Assembly: GCA_026683435.1 (NCBI GenBank)
Contig: GCA_026683435.1_4866.1
Source: a phage
Direction: 5' to 3' (one strand)
DNA: 64,000 nt
The position numbers and the translations under genes are program-made. Below are positions 4,035 through 59,406 of this stretch, in pieces; within the stretch, counting starts at the first letter, position 1, and every line of letters begins with the position of its first letter. Below the pieces are notes generated by a model. That model was not told the origin of the DNA and searched no databases. It saw nothing but the letters and a program-made list of their open reading frames with translations.

Positions 4035-4637
4035 TTATGGTGAAGTACGCTATCCCTTTAACTCCAGCTGATTCGACCTGCGTGTTGGGGATTATCCCGC
4101 TGAATGAGCCGACACAACAGCTCAAGTGCAGTGGATGAGTAAAACCCCATATTAGCTCCTGTTAGCTAAGAACCAATTCGATAACGTGGACTACCGACGC
4201 GCTACTGTTCGAAGAGATGTACGATGGTGAGTCTGGATAAGTGGCGCGATAATACCACGTGTTGGCGTTGCCAGCGATTTGATAGGCGCGTCTACCGACT
4301 GTACACTGCTATCAGATAACCAAACACCGTATAAATCACGTAGAGCTGGGAGAAGATCCCGCACGGTCTTGGCCGTTTGTGGTACGTAGACGCGCGGAGC
4401 TATTTAAAATAGATCTGATAATGTTAAACGGTCGTAATAAACCGTGCACTCCCCAGAGAAACCTTTACCGGGTTTACCTACCAACGTAATTACCGTGTTA
4501 CGACCATTCTTAGTGGTCTCGGCAGGAATACCCCTCACCCCAATCGAATCAGCGCTGATTCTTCCTGCGAGTTCAGGGTTATCCCTTACAACCTGTTGGC
4601 AGAGCAGTTCCAGTTCGGGTGCGCTATACAATCCCAT
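4035..4637 (-). pseudogene. decayed array copy: intact 77-codon N-module fragment (4404..4637) followed by non-coding remnant
   Basis: Fragment MGLYSAPELELLCQQVVRDNP...VYYDRLTLSDLF is about 74% identical by eye (57/77) to the N-terminus of the 6550..7968 product; no ORF in 3984..4403; 4130..4400 keeps residual nucleotide similarity to the 3' end of gene 4649..5548. Confidence 0.55.
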
Positions 4638-4648
4638 GAAGTCTCCTG

Positions 4649-6549: not shown

Positions 6550-7968
6550 TTATTGGAATCCATCCAACTCACCGTTAGTATCGCCCAGAGTAATTTTTGA
6601 AGGTTGGGCGATTTGGTCAGTCGTGAGAATAATCGGTCTAATCTTAACGCTAGCCATGCCTGTTACCGCGACGGAATATGCACGTTCATCATTGTCCGTC
6701 GTGGCAAGCAGAGGACGTGGATTCGCTGCAGCGGAGGTTTCCGTAATAGGCACCACACGAAGCGATTCGTTTTGGTCGATGTCTGTCAGAGTAACCACGG
6801 ACGGTGCCCATGTCAGTTCTGCACCTTCGTCAATCAACGGCACAGGTTCATTGGCAACATCAAACATCTCCAGGATTGGCCAAAAGCCAGAAGAGGTGTG
6901 GATGTATGTGTATGAACGATAGCTCCCACTGATAGACTGGTAATACGCTTGGTCGGCACCGAACTGGTGTCGTAACCACACGTAATCCAGGAAGTTAGCA
7001 TCAGTCGTGCTAAGAGTTCCCCATTCCCCATATACGTTCACCGACCCCAATTTGCTGGTCAGTGACAGGATAGAGGTGATTGACGGCGGTTTACTCCAAT
7101 CAGGCGCGGCGGCGTTCTCGGTGTAATACGGGATAGACATTCTGAAATAATGCGTTCCTTCATCATCCCGTTTTACCATGTATTTCAACTGTTCAACATC
7201 GACAGGTGTGTAAGTCGACTTCGGGCGAGGTCCTGCGTCTCCGGAATCAAATATTGCACCCTTGTTGTACAGGTCTGCCCAGGTAACGTTGCAAATCGCA
7301 CGGGTCGGAACAAACACTACCGCCCCATTCAGAAAGAATTTGAGCCACTTGATAGCGTAGCGGTTAGGCCAGTTGGTGCCGTTATAGAGGGCATACACCA
7401 TTTCATCAGATGTGAATAACTCTTCCGCGCTTACCAACCCAAAGAATCCGTATAACTCATTACCGGCCATTAATCCTTTTGGCCCAGGACCCGATTTCGG
7501 ATACATCGCAATCGGTTCGTAAACATAGGTCATCTTGCATGACCCGGTATAACACAAGGAGTTAGCGTGCGCCGTCAGAGTTACAGTTTCCGGCGTAGCG
7601 TATTTCATTAATGCAACGTTTGGACTGGTGATGTCACTCGCGGTTAAGTTCAACCCGTTCAATTCATTGAACGCCGGTAACGCTTCCGCATGGGTTTGTG
7701 CGCTACGTGGAATACTCACCATATTCGGGCCAGACTTGAACAGACTGGCCAGATTCAACCGGTCGTAATATACCGTTATTTCCCCAGCAAATCCTTTACC
7801 GGGTTTTCCTACCAACGTAATCTGTGTGTTTCGTCCGTTAACGTTTTTCGCAACAGGAACACCCCTGACCCCAATGGAGTCAGCGGTGATTTTTCCTGCT
7901 AAACCGGGATTGTCACGCACAATTTGTTGGCAGAGCAGTTCCATTGAAGGTTCTGTATACAACCCCAT
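6550..7968 (-). CDS. array paralog A-type (N-module + core domain), 472 aa
   Basis: N-module MGLYTEPSMELLCQQIVRDNP...GRNTQITLVGKPGKGFAGEITVYYDRLNLASLF; core GPGPKGLMAGNELYGFFG; C-terminal NGELDGFQ shared with 9925..11337. Confidence 0.6.
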   Translation of the reverse strand: MGLYTEPSMELLCQQIVRDNPGLAGKITADSIGVRGVPVAKNVNGRNTQITLVGKPGKGFAGEITVYYDRLNLASLFKSGPNMVSIPRSAQTHAEALPAFNELNGLNLTASDITSPNVALMKYATPETVTLTAHANSLCYTGSCKMTYVYEPIAMYPKSGPGPKGLMAGNELYGFFGLVSAEELFTSDEMVYALYNGTNWPNRYAIKWLKFFLNGAVVFVPTRAICNVTWADLYNKGAIFDSGDAGPRPKSTYTPVDVEQLKYMVKRDDEGTHYFRMSIPYYTENAAAPDWSKPPSITSILSLTSKLGSVNVYGEWGTLSTTDANFLDYVWLRHQFGADQAYYQSISGSYRSYTYIHTSSGFWPILEMFDVANEPVPLIDEGAELTWAPSVVTLTDIDQNESLRVVPITETSAAANPRPLLATTDNDERAYSVAVTGMASVKIRPIILTTDQIAQPSKITLGDTNGELDGFQ

Positions 7969-7981
7969 GGTATTTACTCCA

Positions 7982-17922: not shown

Positions 17923-18369
17923 TTAGTGTACTTCTTTTTCTAAACGCAGGCGATGCGTCGCTAAGGCAACCGCGCGGTTTTCGAATTCAAGACTGAATGG
18001 ACTGATTTGTGCCATGTATTTCTTTACAACATCGTCAGAGACAACTTGACGACGATAATCACGAATCATTTCAGCGAAGCTGCTAGTAGGAAGTTCGTCG
18101 TATTCGATTTCCATACCACGTCTATTGATGTAATACGAAGCAACCATGTCGTTAAACATTACGTCACCGGCTTCACCTAAAGGGAACTCGTCACGTGTGG
18201 GTTCCGTAGTCTGGAACGTGGCTTCTTTGGCGTTGGCGATAATCTCTTCGAAGTCCTCAGTAGTGAATTCGCTAGGGTCTTGTTTGTTGGCCGCCATCAC
18301 GATTAGGAAAGAAATCATAATCGGGTTTTTGCTAGCGTACTTAGTAAGTTCGTTATTCAGAATGTACAT
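17923..18369 (-). CDS. hypothetical protein (148 aa)
   Basis: ATG at 18369 preceded by AAGGAG; downstream of promoter-like element copy 1. Confidence 0.7.
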   Translation of the reverse strand: MYILNNELTKYASKNPIMISFLIVMAANKQDPSEFTTEDFEEIIANAKEATFQTTEPTRDEFPLGEAGDVMFNDMVASYYINRRGMEIEYDELPTSSFAEMIRDYRRQVVSDDVVKKYMAQISPFSLEFENRAVALATHRLRLEKEVH

Positions 18370-18370
18370 G

Positions 18371-18450
18371 TTAAAACTCCTTAAGATAATGGTCGATTAG
18401 ATAAGAGTTAATGGTTAACTCTCACCTAAGTAATATATATCTGAAAATAA
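18371..18450 (-). repeat. duplicated promoter-leader unit (copy 1 of 2; partner 37126..37205)
   Basis: About 80% identity by eye with small indels; both contain the core motif, a stem-loop (agagttaa...ttaactct) and an AAGGAG SD. Confidence 0.6.
18424..18448 (-). promoter_or_regulatory. conserved quasi-palindromic promoter/operator-like element, copy 1
   Basis: Plus-strand cacctaagtaatatatatctgaaaa; coding-strand core AGATATATATTACTTAGG contains a -10-like TATATT. Confidence 0.5.
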
Positions 18451-18465
18451 TTGTAATCGGACTAG

Positions 18466-18504
18466 ACAAAAAAAGAAGAAACCCTACTCCCGAAGGAGTA
18501 GGGT
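18466..18504 (-). terminator. hairpin terminator after gene 18541..18969
   Basis: ccctactcc-cgaa-ggagtaggg preceded (plus) by aaaaaaagaagaa. Confidence 0.7.
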
Positions 18505-22908: not shown

Positions 22909-22967
22909 TTTAAGTGCTCCTTAATACATGACATAAGCTCTGATTGAAACGTAAATTTCAGAGGTTC

Positions 22968-22992
22968 ACTGAGATAATATCTATCTGAAATA
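22968..22992 (-). promoter_or_regulatory. promoter/operator-like element, copy 2
   Basis: Plus cactgagataatatctatctgaaat; leader stem ctctga...tcagag follows. Confidence 0.5.
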
Positions 22993-25196: not shown

Positions 25197-25747
25197 TATA
25201 CATCGTCTCCGTAGGTTAACACTGCATCATCACCGATGCATAAAACAGTTTCTTCATCCAGACTTGCCACAGCTTCTTTTTCATTAAACGCCGTGAATGT
25301 AAAGGTAGCCGTCCAAGCCGGTGAATCGTCACTCATCGCTGCAATCAATGGCTCGTTTGTTGGTGTAATAACCCCTGTCGAGATGTCTTCACGTGACAAG
25401 TTTAAACCGCATAACTGGTTTACAACTGTCGCTAAATCAGCATAGGTGTCGCCGGGAGCTACAGTAACCAGTATCGGTCCTTGCGGGTCGATAATCTTAT
25501 TAGCGACTAGACGGTCGTAATAGACGGTAACCTTCTTGCCGTTAGGTTTACGTGCTTTCGCAATGTACGCTTGCGAGGTACGGGCACTTTCAACACCTAA
25601 GTCGATTGGCCCTACTCCGCTTATCACAATCTCGTCAGGCGATAATGACAAGCCGTTATCGTGATTAATCAACGCCACGACAAGCGCTTTCGACGAGAGT
25701 GTTAGGTCTGGCTGATAGCGGTCTGCCATTAACGCCTCCAGAAACAA
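25196..25747 (-). CDS. stand-alone N-module protein (183 aa)
   Basis: ...KVTVYYDRLVANKII...QLCGLNLSREDIS matches both N-module blocks; followed directly (overlapping start/stop) by the 719-aa gene. Confidence 0.6.
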   Translation of the reverse strand: MFLEALMADRYQPDLTLSSKALVVALINHDNGLSLSPDEIVISGVGPIDLGVESARTSQAYIAKARKPNGKKVTVYYDRLVANKIIDPQGPILVTVAPGDTYADLATVVNQLCGLNLSREDISTGVITPTNEPLIAAMSDDSPAWTATFTFTAFNEKEAVASLDEETVLCIGDDAVLTYGDDV

Positions 25748-30152: not shown

Positions 30153-30194
30153 TAAAAAAGAAAAAAGACGTCCTACTCCCGAAGGAGTAGGACA
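30153..30194 (-). terminator. hairpin terminator after gene 30200..30544
   Basis: gtcctactcc-cgaa-ggagtaggac preceded (plus) by aaaaaagaaaaaag. Confidence 0.7.
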
Positions 30195-30544: not shown

Positions 30545-30592
30545 TCTCGATACTCCTTATAGATTAAAATGTGAGGGAGAAAACAATCTTCT

Positions 30593-30618
30593 CCCCTAGA
30601 TAACATCTATCTGAAAAG
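30593..30618 (-). promoter_or_regulatory. promoter/operator-like element, copy 3
   Basis: Plus cccctagataacatctatctgaaaag; leader stem gggagaa...ttctccc. Confidence 0.5.
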
Positions 30619-35640: not shown

Positions 35641-35677
35641 AAAGACAAAAAATTAAGGGGTCCGAAGACCCCTTAAT
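35641..35677 (-). terminator. hairpin terminator after gene 35680..36336
   Basis: ttaaggggtc-cgaa-gaccccttaa preceded (plus) by aaaaagacaaaaaa. Confidence 0.7.
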
Positions 35678-35679
35678 GA

Positions 35680-36336
35680 TTACAGTTCAGGTTTGGAGAC
35701 AAGCGCCGTCCAAGTTTCAGAATGTTTGATACTGACGTGCGCCAAGCGATTCACCATGAACGCAAATTTGTCCATATGCTTCTGCACTTCGTTATCAGTC
35801 AGATTACCAGCGATAACTTTACCGTCTTTGGTCAGCACGATATAACCGTGGTTGTTGTCTACAGTAGTAAACGCCACGTCAATCGTAACTGGGTACAGTT
35901 TCACCAGCGTCGGCAGAATATGACCAACACGATCCGCCATACCCGCAAGCTGACCACAAAGGTCGGCTTTATCCTGCATGAACAAACGCAACATCGCTAC
36001 TGCAAACACCGGATAGATGTTTTCGATTTGCGTGTCGTAACGAGACAGACCGATAACTTCATCACCACGGGTTAGCACCATGTTGTTCAGATGCGCGCCT
36101 TTATAGATGGTAAAGCGTACGTCGCTACCAAGGTTAACCGCAACGATTTCCTGACCAAGGTCAATCGGATATTCGCGCTCGATGTGAATTGTTTTCAGAC
36201 GTTCACTGATTGGTACAATTACATCCGGTTTAGGAATGGTAGGTGGGCGTGGAGATTCGGTAGTACGCGTTTTTGTGGCTTTAATCGCGTTGCTTGCCGT
36301 TGAATCTTTTGCTACAGTTTTAGGGGCCTTCGCCAT
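35680..36336 (-). CDS. hypothetical protein (218 aa), N-terminus MAKAPK
   Basis: Track ORF extends to 36414; ATG at 36336 with AAGGAG SD. Confidence 0.6.
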   Translation of the reverse strand: MAKAPKTVAKDSTASNAIKATKTRTTESPRPPTIPKPDVIVPISERLKTIHIEREYPIDLGQEIVAVNLGSDVRFTIYKGAHLNNMVLTRGDEVIGLSRYDTQIENIYPVFAVAMLRLFMQDKADLCGQLAGMADRVGHILPTLVKLYPVTIDVAFTTVDNNHGYIVLTKDGKVIAGNLTDNEVQKHMDKFAFMVNRLAHVSIKHSETWTALVSKPEL

Positions 36337-36358: not shown

Positions 36359-36748
36359 TTAGTTATCCCAGAAAGCTGCTTCTGGAAAGTCGTGTTCAAA
36401 TGCCCGACGGTCATTCTCTACACGGTTTAAATGTGTCGGTAAAGACACACAGTTATTACAGATACAAAGTTCTTTATCCCCTTGACTGGGGTCAAAGTCG
36501 TGCCATTTCCACTCAACAGTATCCCGTTTCGGGAAGGTACCTTTGCAATCGTCGCAGACCACTTCTTCAGCTGCAATTTCAGCCTGCAGTTTTTCCCAGC
36601 AGTCTTCGCACATGTAATACGTTTCGCGGCCCCATGGGTCGCACTCTGCCGTATAGCGCGGGGCTATAGAGCCCACTTTAAGATGTTTACATCGATCATC
36701 CTCTTCCGTCATCACGCGACGGGTGATACCATTTACAAACCAATTCAT
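36359..36748 (-). CDS. Cys-rich zinc-ribbon protein (129 aa)
   Basis: Multiple CxxC pairs (CEDCW, CDDCKG, CICNNC). Confidence 0.55.
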   Translation of the reverse strand: MNWFVNGITRRVMTEEDDRCKHLKVGSIAPRYTAECDPWGRETYYMCEDCWEKLQAEIAAEEVVCDDCKGTFPKRDTVEWKWHDFDPSQGDKELCICNNCVSLPTHLNRVENDRRAFEHDFPEAAFWDN

Positions 36749-36759
36749 ATGTTTGCTCC

Positions 36760-37125
36760 CTACATTACTGCAGAAGGTTTACGTGCCATGACTTTGAGTC
36801 CTGTTTCTCGTACCCGGATAGGACAGTTATTCATGTAGTCGGTGCAGGATTCAATTTTGAAGCTATGGCGGCATTTGCCGTTGATGGAACGGTAAACGAT
36901 TTCGTAATTCAGGCGCAGTGTATCGGCAACACGCATCAGAGTTTCGATAGTCACGGCTTTCTCGCGTTCATTTTTAATCGCAGAGATTTGTGACGGTGAG
37001 CAGCCTACCAACAATGCAATGTCTTTCTGCGTAACATCCTTCGCAGTGACACGAGTAATAATGTAAGAGAGACGAACCAGAAATGCTTTCTTTGCCAACA
37101 CAACGGTTTGATGTTTAAAACGCAT
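36760..37125 (-). CDS. XRE-type helix-turn-helix DNA-binding protein
   Basis: TQKDIALLVGCSPSQISAIKNEREKAVTIETLMRVADTL fits the Cro/C1 HTH pattern; ATG at 37125 with AAGGAG SD, directly downstream of element copy 4. Confidence 0.7.
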   Translation of the reverse strand: MRFKHQTVVLAKKAFLVRLSYIITRVTAKDVTQKDIALLVGCSPSQISAIKNEREKAVTIETLMRVADTLRLNYEIVYRSINGKCRHSFKIESCTDYMNNCPIRVRETGLKVMARKPSAVM

Positions 37126-37205
37126 TAGAATACTCCTTTAGATTAATAGTCGATTAGAGAGTTTAGTAGTAACTCTCACCTAAGTAATATATATCTGAAA
37201 TTTAG
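37126..37205 (-). repeat. duplicated promoter-leader unit (copy 2 of 2; partner 18371..18450)
   Basis: Shares core motif, stem-loop (gagagtt...aactctc) and SD with the 18.4-kb copy. Confidence 0.6.
37177..37201 (-). promoter_or_regulatory. promoter/operator-like element, copy 4
   Basis: Plus cacctaagtaatatatatctgaaa (identical core to copy 1). Confidence 0.5.
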
Positions 37206-37243
37206 TGGAGTGGAAGCAAAAAGCATAAGACTGTTCTGATCTG

Positions 37244-37283
37244 TAAAAAAAGACAATACCCTCTTACCCGAAGGTAAGAGGGG
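37244..37283 (-). terminator. hairpin terminator after gene 37289..37912
   Basis: ccctcttacc-cgaa-ggtaagaggg preceded (plus) by aaaaaaagacaa. Confidence 0.7.
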
Positions 37284-38015: not shown

Positions 38016-38780
38016 TTAGAAGTCAACTCGCGTTTTCGATTTTTCCTCAATGCCTTCTGGCCATGAATCAATCCACGCTTGCAGCACCGCAGCTACACGG
38101 GGCTCAGCTAAGAACCTCTTCAATAACGGCCATGACTGGAGAGGATATAAAAACTTCAACGAAACTTGACCTGGGTCAAACTCATTCCGAACAGTAAACG
38201 GTAAACGGAAATCATAAGTTACCTGAACAACTGGCTCACTGAAAGGCTGGCCAAAGAAACTCAGGTTCCGAGTTACCGAAAGGACATGCCCTGCAAACTC
38301 ACCCCGAATCAGTTCGCTGCTCTTAACGGAGACAAACGAATAACCGTCGGTGTTCGGCTTACGCAGTCGTTCGGTTTTCATCACGTTAGCGAAGAAGTTA
38401 TCAATCACTTCTTCGACCAATACGTAATTCAGACACTCCCCACGCAACGCCTCGAGATTGTGTTGAGACCATGCATCCCATAGCGCCGGTTTTCTGGCAA
38501 TCAGCTTAAAGAACAGACGTGCAGAAACCGCCCGGAGTTCGCCGAGCATTTTCTTGGTCAGTTCAGTTTGATCCCAACTGGGGGCACAAAAGATTGTCCT
38601 TCCGCCGGAACCTACTAAGGTGGCACCGGTCACGCTGTTAATCAGTTTGTGACTTAACATGTGCGGAATACCTTTTGCCGTCAGGTCATTTTCGTCATAC
38701 GTGAATACGTAGCGATACTGACCATCTGCGGTAGGTACGGAAAGCCATTCTTTGGTTGCTGCTTTATTGAGTTTTGACAT
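38016..38780 (-). CDS. hypothetical protein (254 aa)
   Basis: ORF track; own promoter-like element (copy 5) and terminator. Confidence 0.6.
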   Translation of the reverse strand: MSKLNKAATKEWLSVPTADGQYRYVFTYDENDLTAKGIPHMLSHKLINSVTGATLVGSGGRTIFCAPSWDQTELTKKMLGELRAVSARLFFKLIARKPALWDAWSQHNLEALRGECLNYVLVEEVIDNFFANVMKTERLRKPNTDGYSFVSVKSSELIRGEFAGHVLSVTRNLSFFGQPFSEPVVQVTYDFRLPFTVRNEFDPGQVSLKFLYPLQSWPLLKRFLAEPRVAAVLQAWIDSWPEGIEEKSKTRVDF

Positions 38781-38876
38781 TTTGTTTACTCGCTTTTAAG
38801 TTTAAGTTGGTGAGTTTTAACCGACTCACAACGGCTTCTAGCATATGCTAAGGATGAAACGTAATTTTTGCACGTC

Positions 38877-38904
38877 TCCCTAAGATAACATCTATCCAAA
38901 AAAG
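38877..38904 (-). promoter_or_regulatory. promoter/operator-like element, copy 5
   Basis: Plus tccctaagataacatctatccaaaaaag. Confidence 0.45.
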
Positions 38905-38936
38905 AATAGAGTCGACCCACTCCCGAAGGAGTGGGT
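38898..38936 (-). terminator. hairpin terminator after gene 38942..39541
   Basis: cccactcc-cgaa-ggagtggg preceded (plus) by aaaaaagaatag. Confidence 0.7.
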
Positions 38937-59149: not shown

Positions 59150-59183
59150 TGAACATCCCAGTAATAATACCAAAAGAATTATT

Positions 59184-59209
59184 CACGTAGATAATATCTA
59201 TCTCAGATT
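59184..59209 (-). promoter_or_regulatory. promoter/operator-like element, copy 6
   Basis: Plus cacgtagataatatctatctcagatt, about 40 nt upstream of ATG 59149. Confidence 0.5.
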
Positions 59210-59346: not shown

Positions 59347-59380
59347 TACTGTCTCCTTAAGTTAAAACCGAATGACTCTC

Positions 59381-59406
59381 TCCCTAAGATAATATCTATC
59401 TATAAA
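59381..59406 (-). promoter_or_regulatory. promoter/operator-like element, copy 7
   Basis: Plus tccctaagataatatctatctataaa, just downstream (minus sense) of the terminator. Confidence 0.5.

Follow-up and report, generated by a model that had tools for sequence, protein, structure and literature searches.

A three-gene unit of an SPN3US-type giant Salmonella phage and its repeated upstream element, probably an early promoter

The three-gene unit and its products

The window, by which we mean the whole 64,000-nucleotide stretch of phage DNA analysed here (contig GCA_026683435.1_4866.1), shares ~96-97% DNA identity with the Salmonella jumbo phage SPN3US, which is a phiKZ-like, nucleus-forming phage (chimallivirus). 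The open reading frames at 36760-37125 and 36359-36748 are both real and both lie on the minus strand, and the SPN3US annotation contains the same two genes together with a third, as gp101, gp102 and gp103. In the direction of transcription, the features around them are as follows.

37259..37282, minus strand: rho-independent terminator at the end of the upstream thymidylate kinase unit (10-bp perfect stem CCCTCTTACC/GGTAAGAGGG, loop of 4, then a T-run)
37157..37177, minus strand: 5'-proximal leader stem-loop GAGAGTT-ACTACTA-AACTCTC, predicted in the MFE fold
37144..37155, minus strand: leader box AATCGACTATTA, just upstream of the Shine-Dalgarno (SD) sequence, enriched in the window and in SPN3US
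37133..37138, minus strand: SD sequence AAGGAG of the HTH gene, read directly from the sequence
36760..37125, minus strand: gp101 homologue, XRE/Cro-C1-type HTH protein of 121 aa (Pfam HTH_3, SPN3US_0101)
36359..36748, minus strand: gp102 homologue, acidic Cys/His-rich protein of 129 aa (PHROG 8344, two predicted zinc sites)
35680..36336, minus strand: gp103 homologue, 218 aa (SPN3US annotation; PHROG 32024)
35652..35677, minus strand: rho-independent terminator closing the three-gene unit (11-bp stem ATTAAGGGGTC/GACCCCTTAAT, then TTTTTTGTCTT)

The genes are tightly packed, with gaps of 11 nt between gp101 and gp102 and 22 nt between gp102 and gp103, and SD sequences are present: the TAG stop of the HTH gene overlaps the GGAG of the gp102 gene, and the gp103 homologue starts with an ATG at 36336, 7 nt downstream of an AAGGAG. 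No terminator was found between the HTH and gp102 genes, and the GNAT and Dam genes further downstream lie beyond the closing terminator. The first-pass annotation had proposed that the HTH and Cys-rich genes are co-transcribed from the fourth copy of a repeated element. The succession of terminator, promoter, 5' hairpin, SD sequence, closely spaced genes and terminator fits such co-transcription, and gp103 belongs to the unit too. This third product has no annotated family and no structure match in Pfam, PHROGs, NCBIfam or structure searches.

The gp101 homologue (99% identical to SPN3US gp101; PHROG 7126) is a basic protein with a pI of 10.0, and its earlier assignment as an XRE-type HTH protein is borne out by Pfam, with scores of 31.4 bits for HTH_3 (PF01381; cut-off 23), 27.0 for HTH_26 (cut-off 22) and 27.0 for HTH_37 (cut-off 27). 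In the AF2 model, residues 4-70 are helical with a pLDDT of 80-90 (helices 5-28, 33-40, 44-51 and 60-69), and the top Foldseek matches in the PDB are all XRE regulators (probability ~1.0, E 0.02-0.05, residues 13-80), the best folds being HigA2, 2o38, C.Esp1396I and HipB. Profile searches gave 2o38 and C.Esp1396I at E 2e-4 to 1e-3, and solved XRE proteins overall at 2e-4 to 1e-2. At its N-terminus the protein carries an additional helix and at its C-terminus a conserved extension of ~45 aa, and this C-terminal domain had no match in fold or profile searches. It is a genuine XRE-family protein and probably a dimeric DNA binder, with which its basic pI is consistent. It shares the five-helix XRE fold with dimeric autoregulators such as C.Esp1396I, HigA2, HipB and 2o38/2a6c (of HTH_37 type), although, unlike the C.Esp1396I, HigA2 and HipB loci, the gp101 locus has no nearby restriction enzyme gene, toxin gene or C-box-like operator. 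The claim that this is the only recognisable DNA-binding regulator also stands at the level of annotation, SPN3US_0101 being the sole regulator annotated among the SPN3US coding sequences.

The gp102 homologue contains 9 Cys and 4 His in 129 aa and has a pI of 4.7. Among 46 homologues (28-61% identity), H22, C47, C65, C68, C97, C100 and H106 are invariant, and C20 and C50 are kept in at least 90%. The predicted zinc ligands form one CxxC-x14-CxxC set (C47-x2-C50, C65-x2-C68) and a second set of the form CxH...CxxC...H (C20, H22, C97-x2-C100, H106). The description of this protein as a zinc ribbon can be kept as far as two conserved CxxC knuckles are concerned, but no Pfam zinc-ribbon family reached threshold and no fold match was significant. 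There is no annotated family for it in Pfam, NCBIfam or PHROGs and no PDB annotation; a BFVD fold search returned only uncharacterised family members, and Pfam searches with ten longer, fused homologues gave nothing but a borderline GAAD match. A resemblance to the RNAP subunit RPB12 was set aside, since the PDB profile match (E 0.06) was sub-threshold like other CxxC matches.

The family comprises 212 clusters at 50% identity. A locus search with a narrower alignment recovered 5 viral loci only, and no family loci were found in bacterial or archaeal genomes. Uncharacterised jumbo-phage proteins such as Ralstonia phage RSL2 ORF161 and Vibrio phage pVa-21 gp188 belong to the family by sequence (tblastn E 1e-16 to 1e-22) and by predicted fold (BFVD E 1e-6), and they share the Cys/His ligands. 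Unlike gp102 here, most of these proteins have no HTH neighbour: the gene occurs without one in RSL2, pVa-21, AgentSmith and FishSpeaker, and the HTH gene occurs without a Cys-rich neighbour in Miami, PS1 and PhiEaH1. The adjacency of the two genes is a clade-level synteny and not a conserved two-gene module. Being acidic, gp102 is unlikely to bind nucleic acid, and it is more likely a protein-binding early factor; that it is a jumbo-phage host-takeover factor, widespread as the 212 clusters show, is conceivable but highly unlikely. The protein represents a widespread family of acidic, predicted zinc-binding and putatively early proteins whose role is testable.

The repeated element and the leader

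The repeated element occurs in seven copies in the window, all of them on the minus strand.

18418..18447, minus strand: copy 1, of the same sub-type as copy 4, with the whole ~95-nt leader cassette duplicated
22962..22991, minus strand: copy 2, with a perfect AGATAN5TATCT
30588..30617, minus strand: copy 3, with a perfect dyad
37172..37201, minus strand: copy 4 (core AGATATATATTACTT, 37182-37196; PWM score 38.0), a member of the 'TTACyT' sub-type, in which the right arm of the palindrome is missing
38873..38902, minus strand: copy 5, GGATAGATGTTATCT, with 1 arm mismatch
59179..59208, minus strand: copy 6, with a perfect dyad
59377..59406, minus strand: copy 7, with a perfect dyad

Copy 4 lies 56 nt upstream of the HTH gene start, and the description of its promoter as duplicated is a fair one, as copies 4 and 1 (18404-18476) share 73 nt at 74% identity. 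The motif lacks symmetry, spans 30 nt or more, has the consensus tTTCAGATAgATATTAyCTaGGTGAG and occurs in two sub-types. When a PWM built from the seven window copies was scanned against the SPN3US genome, 17 further sites appeared in the rest of the genome, which makes ~24 altogether. All 24 lie on the coding strand, pointing in the same direction as the gene that follows, and 23 are found 50-120 nt ahead of a gene start; the site at 25221 lies inside gp30, ~285 nt upstream of gp31, and one site is found upstream of the RNAP beta/beta' genes gp34-35.

Early promoters with an AT-rich motif of ~10 nt near -10, upstream of early operons, have been described in every RNAP-encoding jumbo phage (PMC7598289, PMC8244752), and phiKZ itself has 28-32 of them, with an AT-rich extended -10-like element (PMC8244752, PMC7598289). 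In these phages it is the injected virion RNAP that performs early transcription, inside the early infection vesicle and at a time when no phage protein has yet been made (PMC13282480). The SPN3US element resembles the early promoters of phiKZ-like phages in its conserved AT-rich core, its strand specificity, its intergenic location at the heads of operons, its position ahead of small non-structural and RNAP subunit genes, its number per genome (~24 vs 28-32) and its lack of a sigma-70 -35 element. It differs from the phiKZ promoters in its clade-specific consensus, TTTCAGATAGATATTATCT, and from their description in having two sub-types, a regular 5' stem-loop and a leader box in one sub-type. 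In the papers available to us, we came across no mapped transcript starts and no data on rifampicin or on the timing of expression for SPN3US-type phages, and the terms early and virion-RNAP-dependent are therefore applied to the element by analogy. The element is most likely the phage's own early (virion-RNAP) promoter and not an HTH binding site.

Downstream of each SPN3US element there is a 5' stem-loop and then a ribosome-binding site, and a stem with a different sequence takes the same leader position in the other copies and in orthologous phages. The fold energy of the leader is not better than that of shuffled sequences (z = 0.23), and the leader has no Rfam match at E up to 1. We found no description in the literature, for the SPN3US-type clade, of the element consensus, its sub-types or this leader architecture (5' stem-loop and conserved box).

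Related layouts are found in phages further afield. In Erwinia phage RAY, which has no gp101 orthologue, the promoter architecture is the same, with the related core CTACATTAC (CCTACATTAC) and no dyad. Miami has the related core GATCTATATTAyC, and its terminator, promoter and hairpin are laid out as in RAY and the window.

The palindrome, the HTH protein and the rival readings

The first-pass annotation had regarded the HTH protein as a candidate for binding the AGATA...TATCT palindromes, which would give an autoregulatory early circuit. In its strongest form, this would mean that a gp101 dimer binds AGATA-N5-TATCT in early promoters and either represses them or switches them off at the change from early to middle transcription, its own operon included. 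Several observations speak for such a model: AGATAN5TATCT is far more frequent than expected by chance, with 4 occurrences in the window against 0.04 expected and 7 in SPN3US against 0.27; the outer dyad has a 10-bp half-site spacing, as is usual in operators of dimeric HTH proteins and well suited to XRE dimers; C.Esp1396I, HipB and HigA2, the nearest relatives of known structure, are dimeric autoregulators that act on palindromes near their own promoters; and gp101 is basic and would be expressed from an early promoter. Nevertheless, a perfect dyad is found in only 4 of the 7 copies in the window and in 7 of the 24 SPN3US sites (10 have one mismatch and 7 have at least two), conservation around it extends asymmetrically, and the sites are all strand-specific. 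In the promoter of the HTH operon itself, with AGATATATATTACTT, 2 of 5 arm positions are mismatched, and in a comparison that took one promoter per phage, except for SPN3US, Miami and RAY, the dyad was imperfect (1-2 of 5 arm positions) in all eight HTH-operon promoters, namely those of the window, SPN3US, the Asesino-like phage, phiEaH2, Caitlin, ChrisDB, Machina and Aeromonas phage PS1. Furthermore, the Salmonella and Aeromonas phages and those between them keep the same promoter core, AGATAGATATTAT, whereas the recognition helix reads PSQISAIK, VSTLGAVK, PGVISNIK or PTTISELK in different orthologues; helix 3 varies at predicted base-contacting positions, and no co-variation of sites with helices was seen. 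RAY has the architecture without the HTH orthologue, phiKZ has been reported to have analogous AT-rich early promoters, with Pseudomonas phages absent from the tblastn matches, and an early protein located in the cytoplasm would have to get into the vesicle or nucleus in which the phage DNA is enclosed (PMC13282480). We consider the model unlikely and find neither the proposed binding nor the proposed autoregulation supported. The dyad is most likely a by-product of an AT-rich, -10-like promoter core and not an operator. Its over-representation and 10-bp half-site spacing imply, even so, that an operator may be embedded in a subset of the promoters. It is also extremely unlikely that the element is a host sigma-70 promoter for the Salmonella RNA polymerase. 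The core does hold TATTAT, a 5/6 match to TATAAT, but the copies share no conserved -35 at the right spacing, a sigma-70 scan was blank at 37170-37210, the conservation of the motif is unlike sigma-70 logic, and the development of phiKZ-like phages is insensitive to rifampicin (PMC13282480).

The leader box offers another place where regulation could act. Either gp101 could autoregulate through AATCGACTATTA or its surroundings, in its own leader and those of ~8 other early units, as a DNA roadblock, or the box could be an RNA translational operator for some other factor. The box is matched 5 times in the window (0.54 expected) and 9 times in SPN3US (1.05 expected), in the latter without exception on the coding strand, and the SD sequence invariably follows 3-10 nt further downstream; this fixed distance points to a role in RNA or translation and away from a DNA operator, and the dyad symmetry of the box (TAAT-N5-ATTA) is weak. 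The box is identical in the leader of the Asesino-like phage and has one mismatch (ATTCGACTATTA) in phiEaH2, and both phages share the gp101 recognition helix (the phiEaH2 protein was part of the helix alignment, and the Asesino-like helix was read from ORF output). It differs in Caitlin and ChrisDB (ATT(C)GATTATCA) and in Machina, phages that also have other recognition helices, but with 3 groups this apparent co-variation is confounded by phylogeny, and we regard the proposal as unlikely. The hairpin palindromes that follow the promoter were also considered as HTH operators and rejected: Caitlin and ChrisDB have the same recognition helix and different stems, and ChrisDB and Machina have the same stems and different helices. 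A different kind of proposal would make gp101 an antitoxin-like or anti-defence XRE protein (HigA/HipB-like) directed against a host toxin, or part of a toxin-antitoxin-like pair with gp102. The presence of HigA2 and HipB among the best folds and weak matches to NCBIfam Y4mF/HipB-type antitoxins would agree with this, and early expression would suit counter-defence. The Y4mF/HipB score, on the other hand, is far under the family cut-off (17.8 vs 71.65 bits), XRE folds are generic, no toxin or nuclease family is found in the neighbours gp102 and gp103, and the two genes occur apart in many phages, all of which makes this proposal very unlikely. A toxin-antitoxin pair or a restriction-modification controller at the locus was rejected for want of partner genes.

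With a probability of roughly 0.6, we favour the reading that the locus is a standard early operon of three genes in a giant Salmonella phage of the SPN3US type, in which the element is an early promoter and not an operator. The gain is a modest one: the palindromic element of the window is best read as an SPN3US-type early promoter, and the HTH-palindrome regulatory circuit, attractive but unsupported, is removed.

Proposed course of expression and possible targets of gp101

If the locus is such an early operon, its anatomy and the literature on related phages suggest that the injected virion RNAP would recognise the asymmetric element past the terminator of the thymidylate kinase unit. Transcription would start a few nucleotides downstream, probably within TAGGTGAG, so that the mRNA would begin with the stem-loop. 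From the order and spacing of the genes and from the terminators, the transcript would then run through gp101, gp102 and gp103 to the terminator at 35677-35652. The gp101 protein would be made early in the cytoplasm, and its operator would not be the promoter core; its most likely targets would be DNA accessible from the cytoplasm, that is, the host nucleoid or a lineage-specific site on phage DNA. In nucleus-forming phages, access to phage DNA is restricted, and the DNA target of a conserved and presumably early XRE protein in them is a concrete, testable matter.

There is a precedent for the host nucleoid in RAY gp94, an XRE-superfamily regulator found on host DNA and kept out of the phage nucleus (Prichard et al. 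2023, PMC10299810). Like gp101, it is a small XRE-type HTH protein of a chimallivirus encoded among non-structural genes, and its binding to host DNA may serve as an analogy. It is not taken as an orthologue, given that hhalign aligned only the HTH motif (27 columns, 58% probability) and that gp94 is a HigA-like protein of 96 aa, compared with the 121 aa of gp101 with its additional N-terminal helix and C-terminal extension. It is also conceivable, although we think it highly unlikely, that gp101 acts as the early-to-middle switch of SPN3US-type chimalliviruses through the dyad-bearing promoters (AGATAGATATTATCT, ~17 of 24) and spares the TTACyT class, to which its own operon belongs; if this were true, there would be early gene sets under different regulation, one for each promoter sub-type. 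Finally, phages of one host, Erwinia amylovora, carry four different HTH recognition helices, a diversity that is easier to reconcile with a co-evolving operator borne by the phage than with one specific target in the host.

A probable early operon of known gene kinds

Across the 2.4 kb around the locus, identity is 95-97% to Salmonella phage SPN3US and to about 30 closely related members of the genus Seoulvirus, which are phiKZ-like, nucleus-forming jumbo phages. The window has the opposite orientation to the SPN3US record, and the genes under study therefore lie on the minus strand. In several SPFM genomes (LR535901-LR535917), the match to the region was broken into 30-40 short pieces and the ORF calls were fragmented, for which sequence-quality problems in the records seem more likely than genuine gene disruption. 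The first-pass annotation held that an XRE-type HTH gene is co-transcribed with a zinc-ribbon gene, and we found that the unit also includes a third gene.

Transcription unit and flanking terminators
37282-37259 (-): strong intrinsic terminator, upstream of the unit
36760-37125 (-): HTH gene, homologue of SPN3US gp101
36359-36748 (-): zinc-protein gene, homologue of gp102
35680-36336 (-): gp103 homologue
35677-35652 (-): strong intrinsic terminator, downstream of the unit

Only 11 nt separate the first two genes, with the HTH stop codon and the GGAG ahead of the zinc-protein gene overlapping each other; the gp103 homologue begins 22 nt past the zinc-protein gene, at an ATG behind AAGGAG rather than at the longer ORF start at 36414. 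No intrinsic terminator was found inside the unit, between the two that flank it, so that spacing and terminators support co-transcription, albeit of a larger unit than was proposed. We regard the locus as a real but ordinary early operon, whose genes are already annotated in SPN3US and are of known kinds, with no new kind of system.

The HTH protein (121 aa, 99% identical to SPN3US gp101, SPN3US_0101, annotated "putative transcriptional regulator") scores 31.4 bits against Pfam HTH_3, whose gathering threshold is 23, and its best structural and profile matches are the dimeric XRE regulators HigA2, 2o38, 2a6c, C.Esp1396I, and HipB. It is basic (pI 10.0). AlphaFold models residues 4-70 with confidence (pLDDT 80-90) as a helical N-terminal domain and gives no resolved structure for the last 45 residues, which are conserved. 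The XRE assignment is upheld by these matches, and the protein is probably a bona fide DNA binder, made early. We rejected a TA antitoxin or R-M controller, since partner genes are absent and the scores are sub-threshold.

The zinc protein, counterpart of SPN3US gp102, has 129 aa with nine Cys and four His and is acidic (pI 4.7). A profile search over 1.8 billion cluster representatives returned 212 relatives, and in an alignment of 46 relatives (28-61% identity) H22, C47, C65, C68, C97, C100, and H106 are invariant and C20 and C50 are kept in at least 90% of members. These ligands give two predicted zinc sites, CxxC-x14-CxxC and CxH...CxxC(...H). Thus, a zinc-binding, ribbon-like protein is a reasonable prediction, although membership in a zinc-ribbon family was not supported, with no significant match to curated zinc-ribbon families or solved folds. 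The family is acidic throughout (median pI 4.7, 45 members), which counts against nucleic-acid binding and would argue for a protein-binding role.

Seoulvirus, Machinavirus, and phiEaH2-type phages share the syntenic block tmk (thymidylate kinase)/HTH/Zn/(gp103)/GNAT/Dam, the gp103 homologue being absent from phiEaH2 and Machina. An extra 126-aa ORF (L008 2124-2504) separates the HTH and zinc-protein genes in the Asesino-like phage, and in Caitlin and ChrisDB an additional small gene lies between promoter and HTH gene. In RSL2, pVa-21, AgentSmith, and FishSpeaker no HTH gene lies next to that of the zinc protein, and in Miami, PS1, and PhiEaH1 the HTH gene has no neighbour encoding a Cys-rich protein. 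Common ancestry is the best explanation of the adjacency, rather than a two-gene module with a joint function.

The repeated element as a probable early promoter

All seven copies of the element in the window lie on the minus strand and are arranged, in the direction of transcription, as an A/T-rich stretch, tTTCAGATAgATATTAyCTaGGTGAG, a nearby stem-loop, a Shine-Dalgarno sequence, and a start codon. The terminator of the preceding unit stands ahead of six of them, none being visible at copy 3 (about 30590). A weight matrix from these copies located 24 sites in the SPN3US genome, 17 of them beyond the window-equivalent region and all on the coding strand. In 23 of 24 cases an annotated gene start follows 50-120 nt downstream, one site preceding the RNAP beta/beta' genes gp34-35, and the remaining site (25221) falls within gp30, ~285 nt upstream of gp31. 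A sigma-70 scan gave no sigma-70-type match at the element.

These phages encode two multisubunit RNA polymerases that transcribe their genomes: a virion polymerase (vRNAP) entering with the injected DNA, and a second, non-virion polymerase produced later (PMC7598289; PMC13282480). In every RNAP-encoding jumbo phage, early operons are preceded by an AT-rich motif about 10 nt long with its centre near -10 (PMC7598289), and phiKZ carries 28-32 copies of its early-promoter motif (PMC8244752). The core found in the window also precedes the HTH orthologues of the Asesino-like phage, phiEaH2, Caitlin, ChrisDB, Machina, and Aeromonas phage PS1; Klebsiella phage Miami (GATCTATATTAyC) and Erwinia phage RAY (CCTACATTAC) differ in core but share the terminator/promoter/hairpin layout. 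By every sequence-level criterion tested, the element appears to be a member of the jumbo-phage early-promoter class.

Two sub-types occur in SPN3US, AGATAGATATTATCT at 17 of 24 sites and AGATATATATTACyTAGGTGAGAGT at seven (4422, 56289, 65408, 94234, 113981, 165682, 223272), and they might mark two regulatory classes. In the minor sub-type, a whole cassette of roughly 95 nt is repeated, comprising promoter, hairpin, box, and Shine-Dalgarno sequence, which bears out the earlier description of the HTH promoter as duplicated.

Cassette features
37123-37235 (-) and 18366-18480 (-): repeated cassette
37172-37201 (-) and 18418-18447 (-): element copies 4 and 1
37157-37177 (-): post-promoter stem-loop; also after copies at 18418, 22962, and 30588, and at other loci (L008, L009, L017, L021, L022, L024)
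37144-37155 (-) and 18387-18398 (-): leader box

A stem-loop follows within a few nucleotides of most early promoters examined, and its sequence varies between copies and phages with pairing kept (GAGAGTT..AACTCTC, GGGAGAA..TTCTCCC, CTTTAGA..TCTAAAG, GACATTA..TAATGTC), so that it looks like a 5'-terminal mRNA hairpin. Several early leaders also carry a 12-nt box, AATCGACyATTA, 3-10 nt upstream of the Shine-Dalgarno sequence. With up to one mismatch allowed, SPN3US (L003-L007) has nine matches where 1.05 would be expected; all nine are on the coding strand, and seven immediately precede an RBS. The Asesino-like HTH leader has the identical box, and that of phiEaH2 departs from it at a single position (ATTCGACTATTA). 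The box might act in translation or as an RNA element, or serve as an operator.

The dyad and the target of the HTH protein

The dyad within the element, AGATA-N5-TATCT, is real and non-random: it occurs four times in the window against 0.04 expected and seven times in SPN3US against 0.27, where the inner 11-bp palindrome AGATA-T-TATCT occurs nine times against 0.27. It had been proposed that the HTH protein binds this dyad, giving an autoregulatory early circuit, and the 10-bp half-site spacing of the outer dyad is of the kind that XRE dimers favour. Nevertheless, the proposal is not supported. The dyad is perfect in only seven of 24 sites, with one mismatch in ten and two or more in seven. 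In the window, SPN3US, the Asesino-like phage, and phiEaH2, the HTH operon itself has the minor sub-type, whose right arm is broken; the dyad is also imperfect ahead of the HTH operons of Caitlin, ChrisDB, Machina, and PS1. Autoregulation through the dyad therefore seems unlikely. Conservation is moreover asymmetric and extends well past the dyad (TTTC upstream, TAGGTGAG downstream), each site points the same way as its gene, and the core is unchanged from Salmonella to Aeromonas phages despite divergent recognition helices. RAY has the same promoter architecture and no orthologue of this HTH protein, and injected vRNAP begins early transcription ahead of any phage protein synthesis (PMC13282480).

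Predicted recognition helices (residues 44-51)
Window: PSQISAIK
Caitlin: VSTLGAVK
Machina: PGVISNIK
Miami: TSTISAIC
PhiEaH1: YYAICAIR
PS1: PTTISELK

Chimallivirus DNA is housed in a vesicle at first and then in a protein nucleus with selective import, and a cytoplasmic early protein would therefore meet mainly host DNA. RAY gp94, an XRE-superfamily regulator, is reported to sit on the host nucleoid, outside the phage nucleus (PMC10299810); since only its HTH motif is shared with the gp101 homologue, it serves as a precedent and is no orthologue. That phages of one host, Erwinia amylovora, have four different recognition helices speaks against a single specific host target. Such diversity is in keeping with a lineage-specific operator on phage DNA or with binding of low specificity. 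Post-promoter stem sequences did not co-vary consistently with the recognition helix among the phages compared, and the conserved leader box is a weak candidate operator.

Further repeats and leaders in the window

Terminator stems also form repeated families. CCTACTCCCGAAGGAGTAGG occurs three times in the window (family D3: 18483-18502, 30172-30191, 38916-38935), and SPN3US has five copies of CCTCTT-N10-AAGAGG, for which 0.01 would be expected. It thus seems that duplication involved entire terminator-promoter junctions. Diverged direct repeats at 4426-4638 and 7757-7969 (75% identity over 213 nt) and shorter families, including D4/D5, between 5200 and 15600 probably reflect a paralogous virion-protein gene array, the SPN3US gp145-153 region.

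The gp76 homologue is preceded by two promoter copies, 59179-59208 (-) and 59377-59406 (-), with a spacing of 198 nt, and the upstream one is followed by a strong Shine-Dalgarno sequence and an unannotated 27-codon ORF (MEVNLERSRLVAPMFDGRGSMANGHHV). Copy 5 has an unusually long leader of about 100 nt (38795-38872, -) with no nearby start codon, which might hold a structured leader or small RNA; the gene downstream is the gp99 homologue, starting at 38780.
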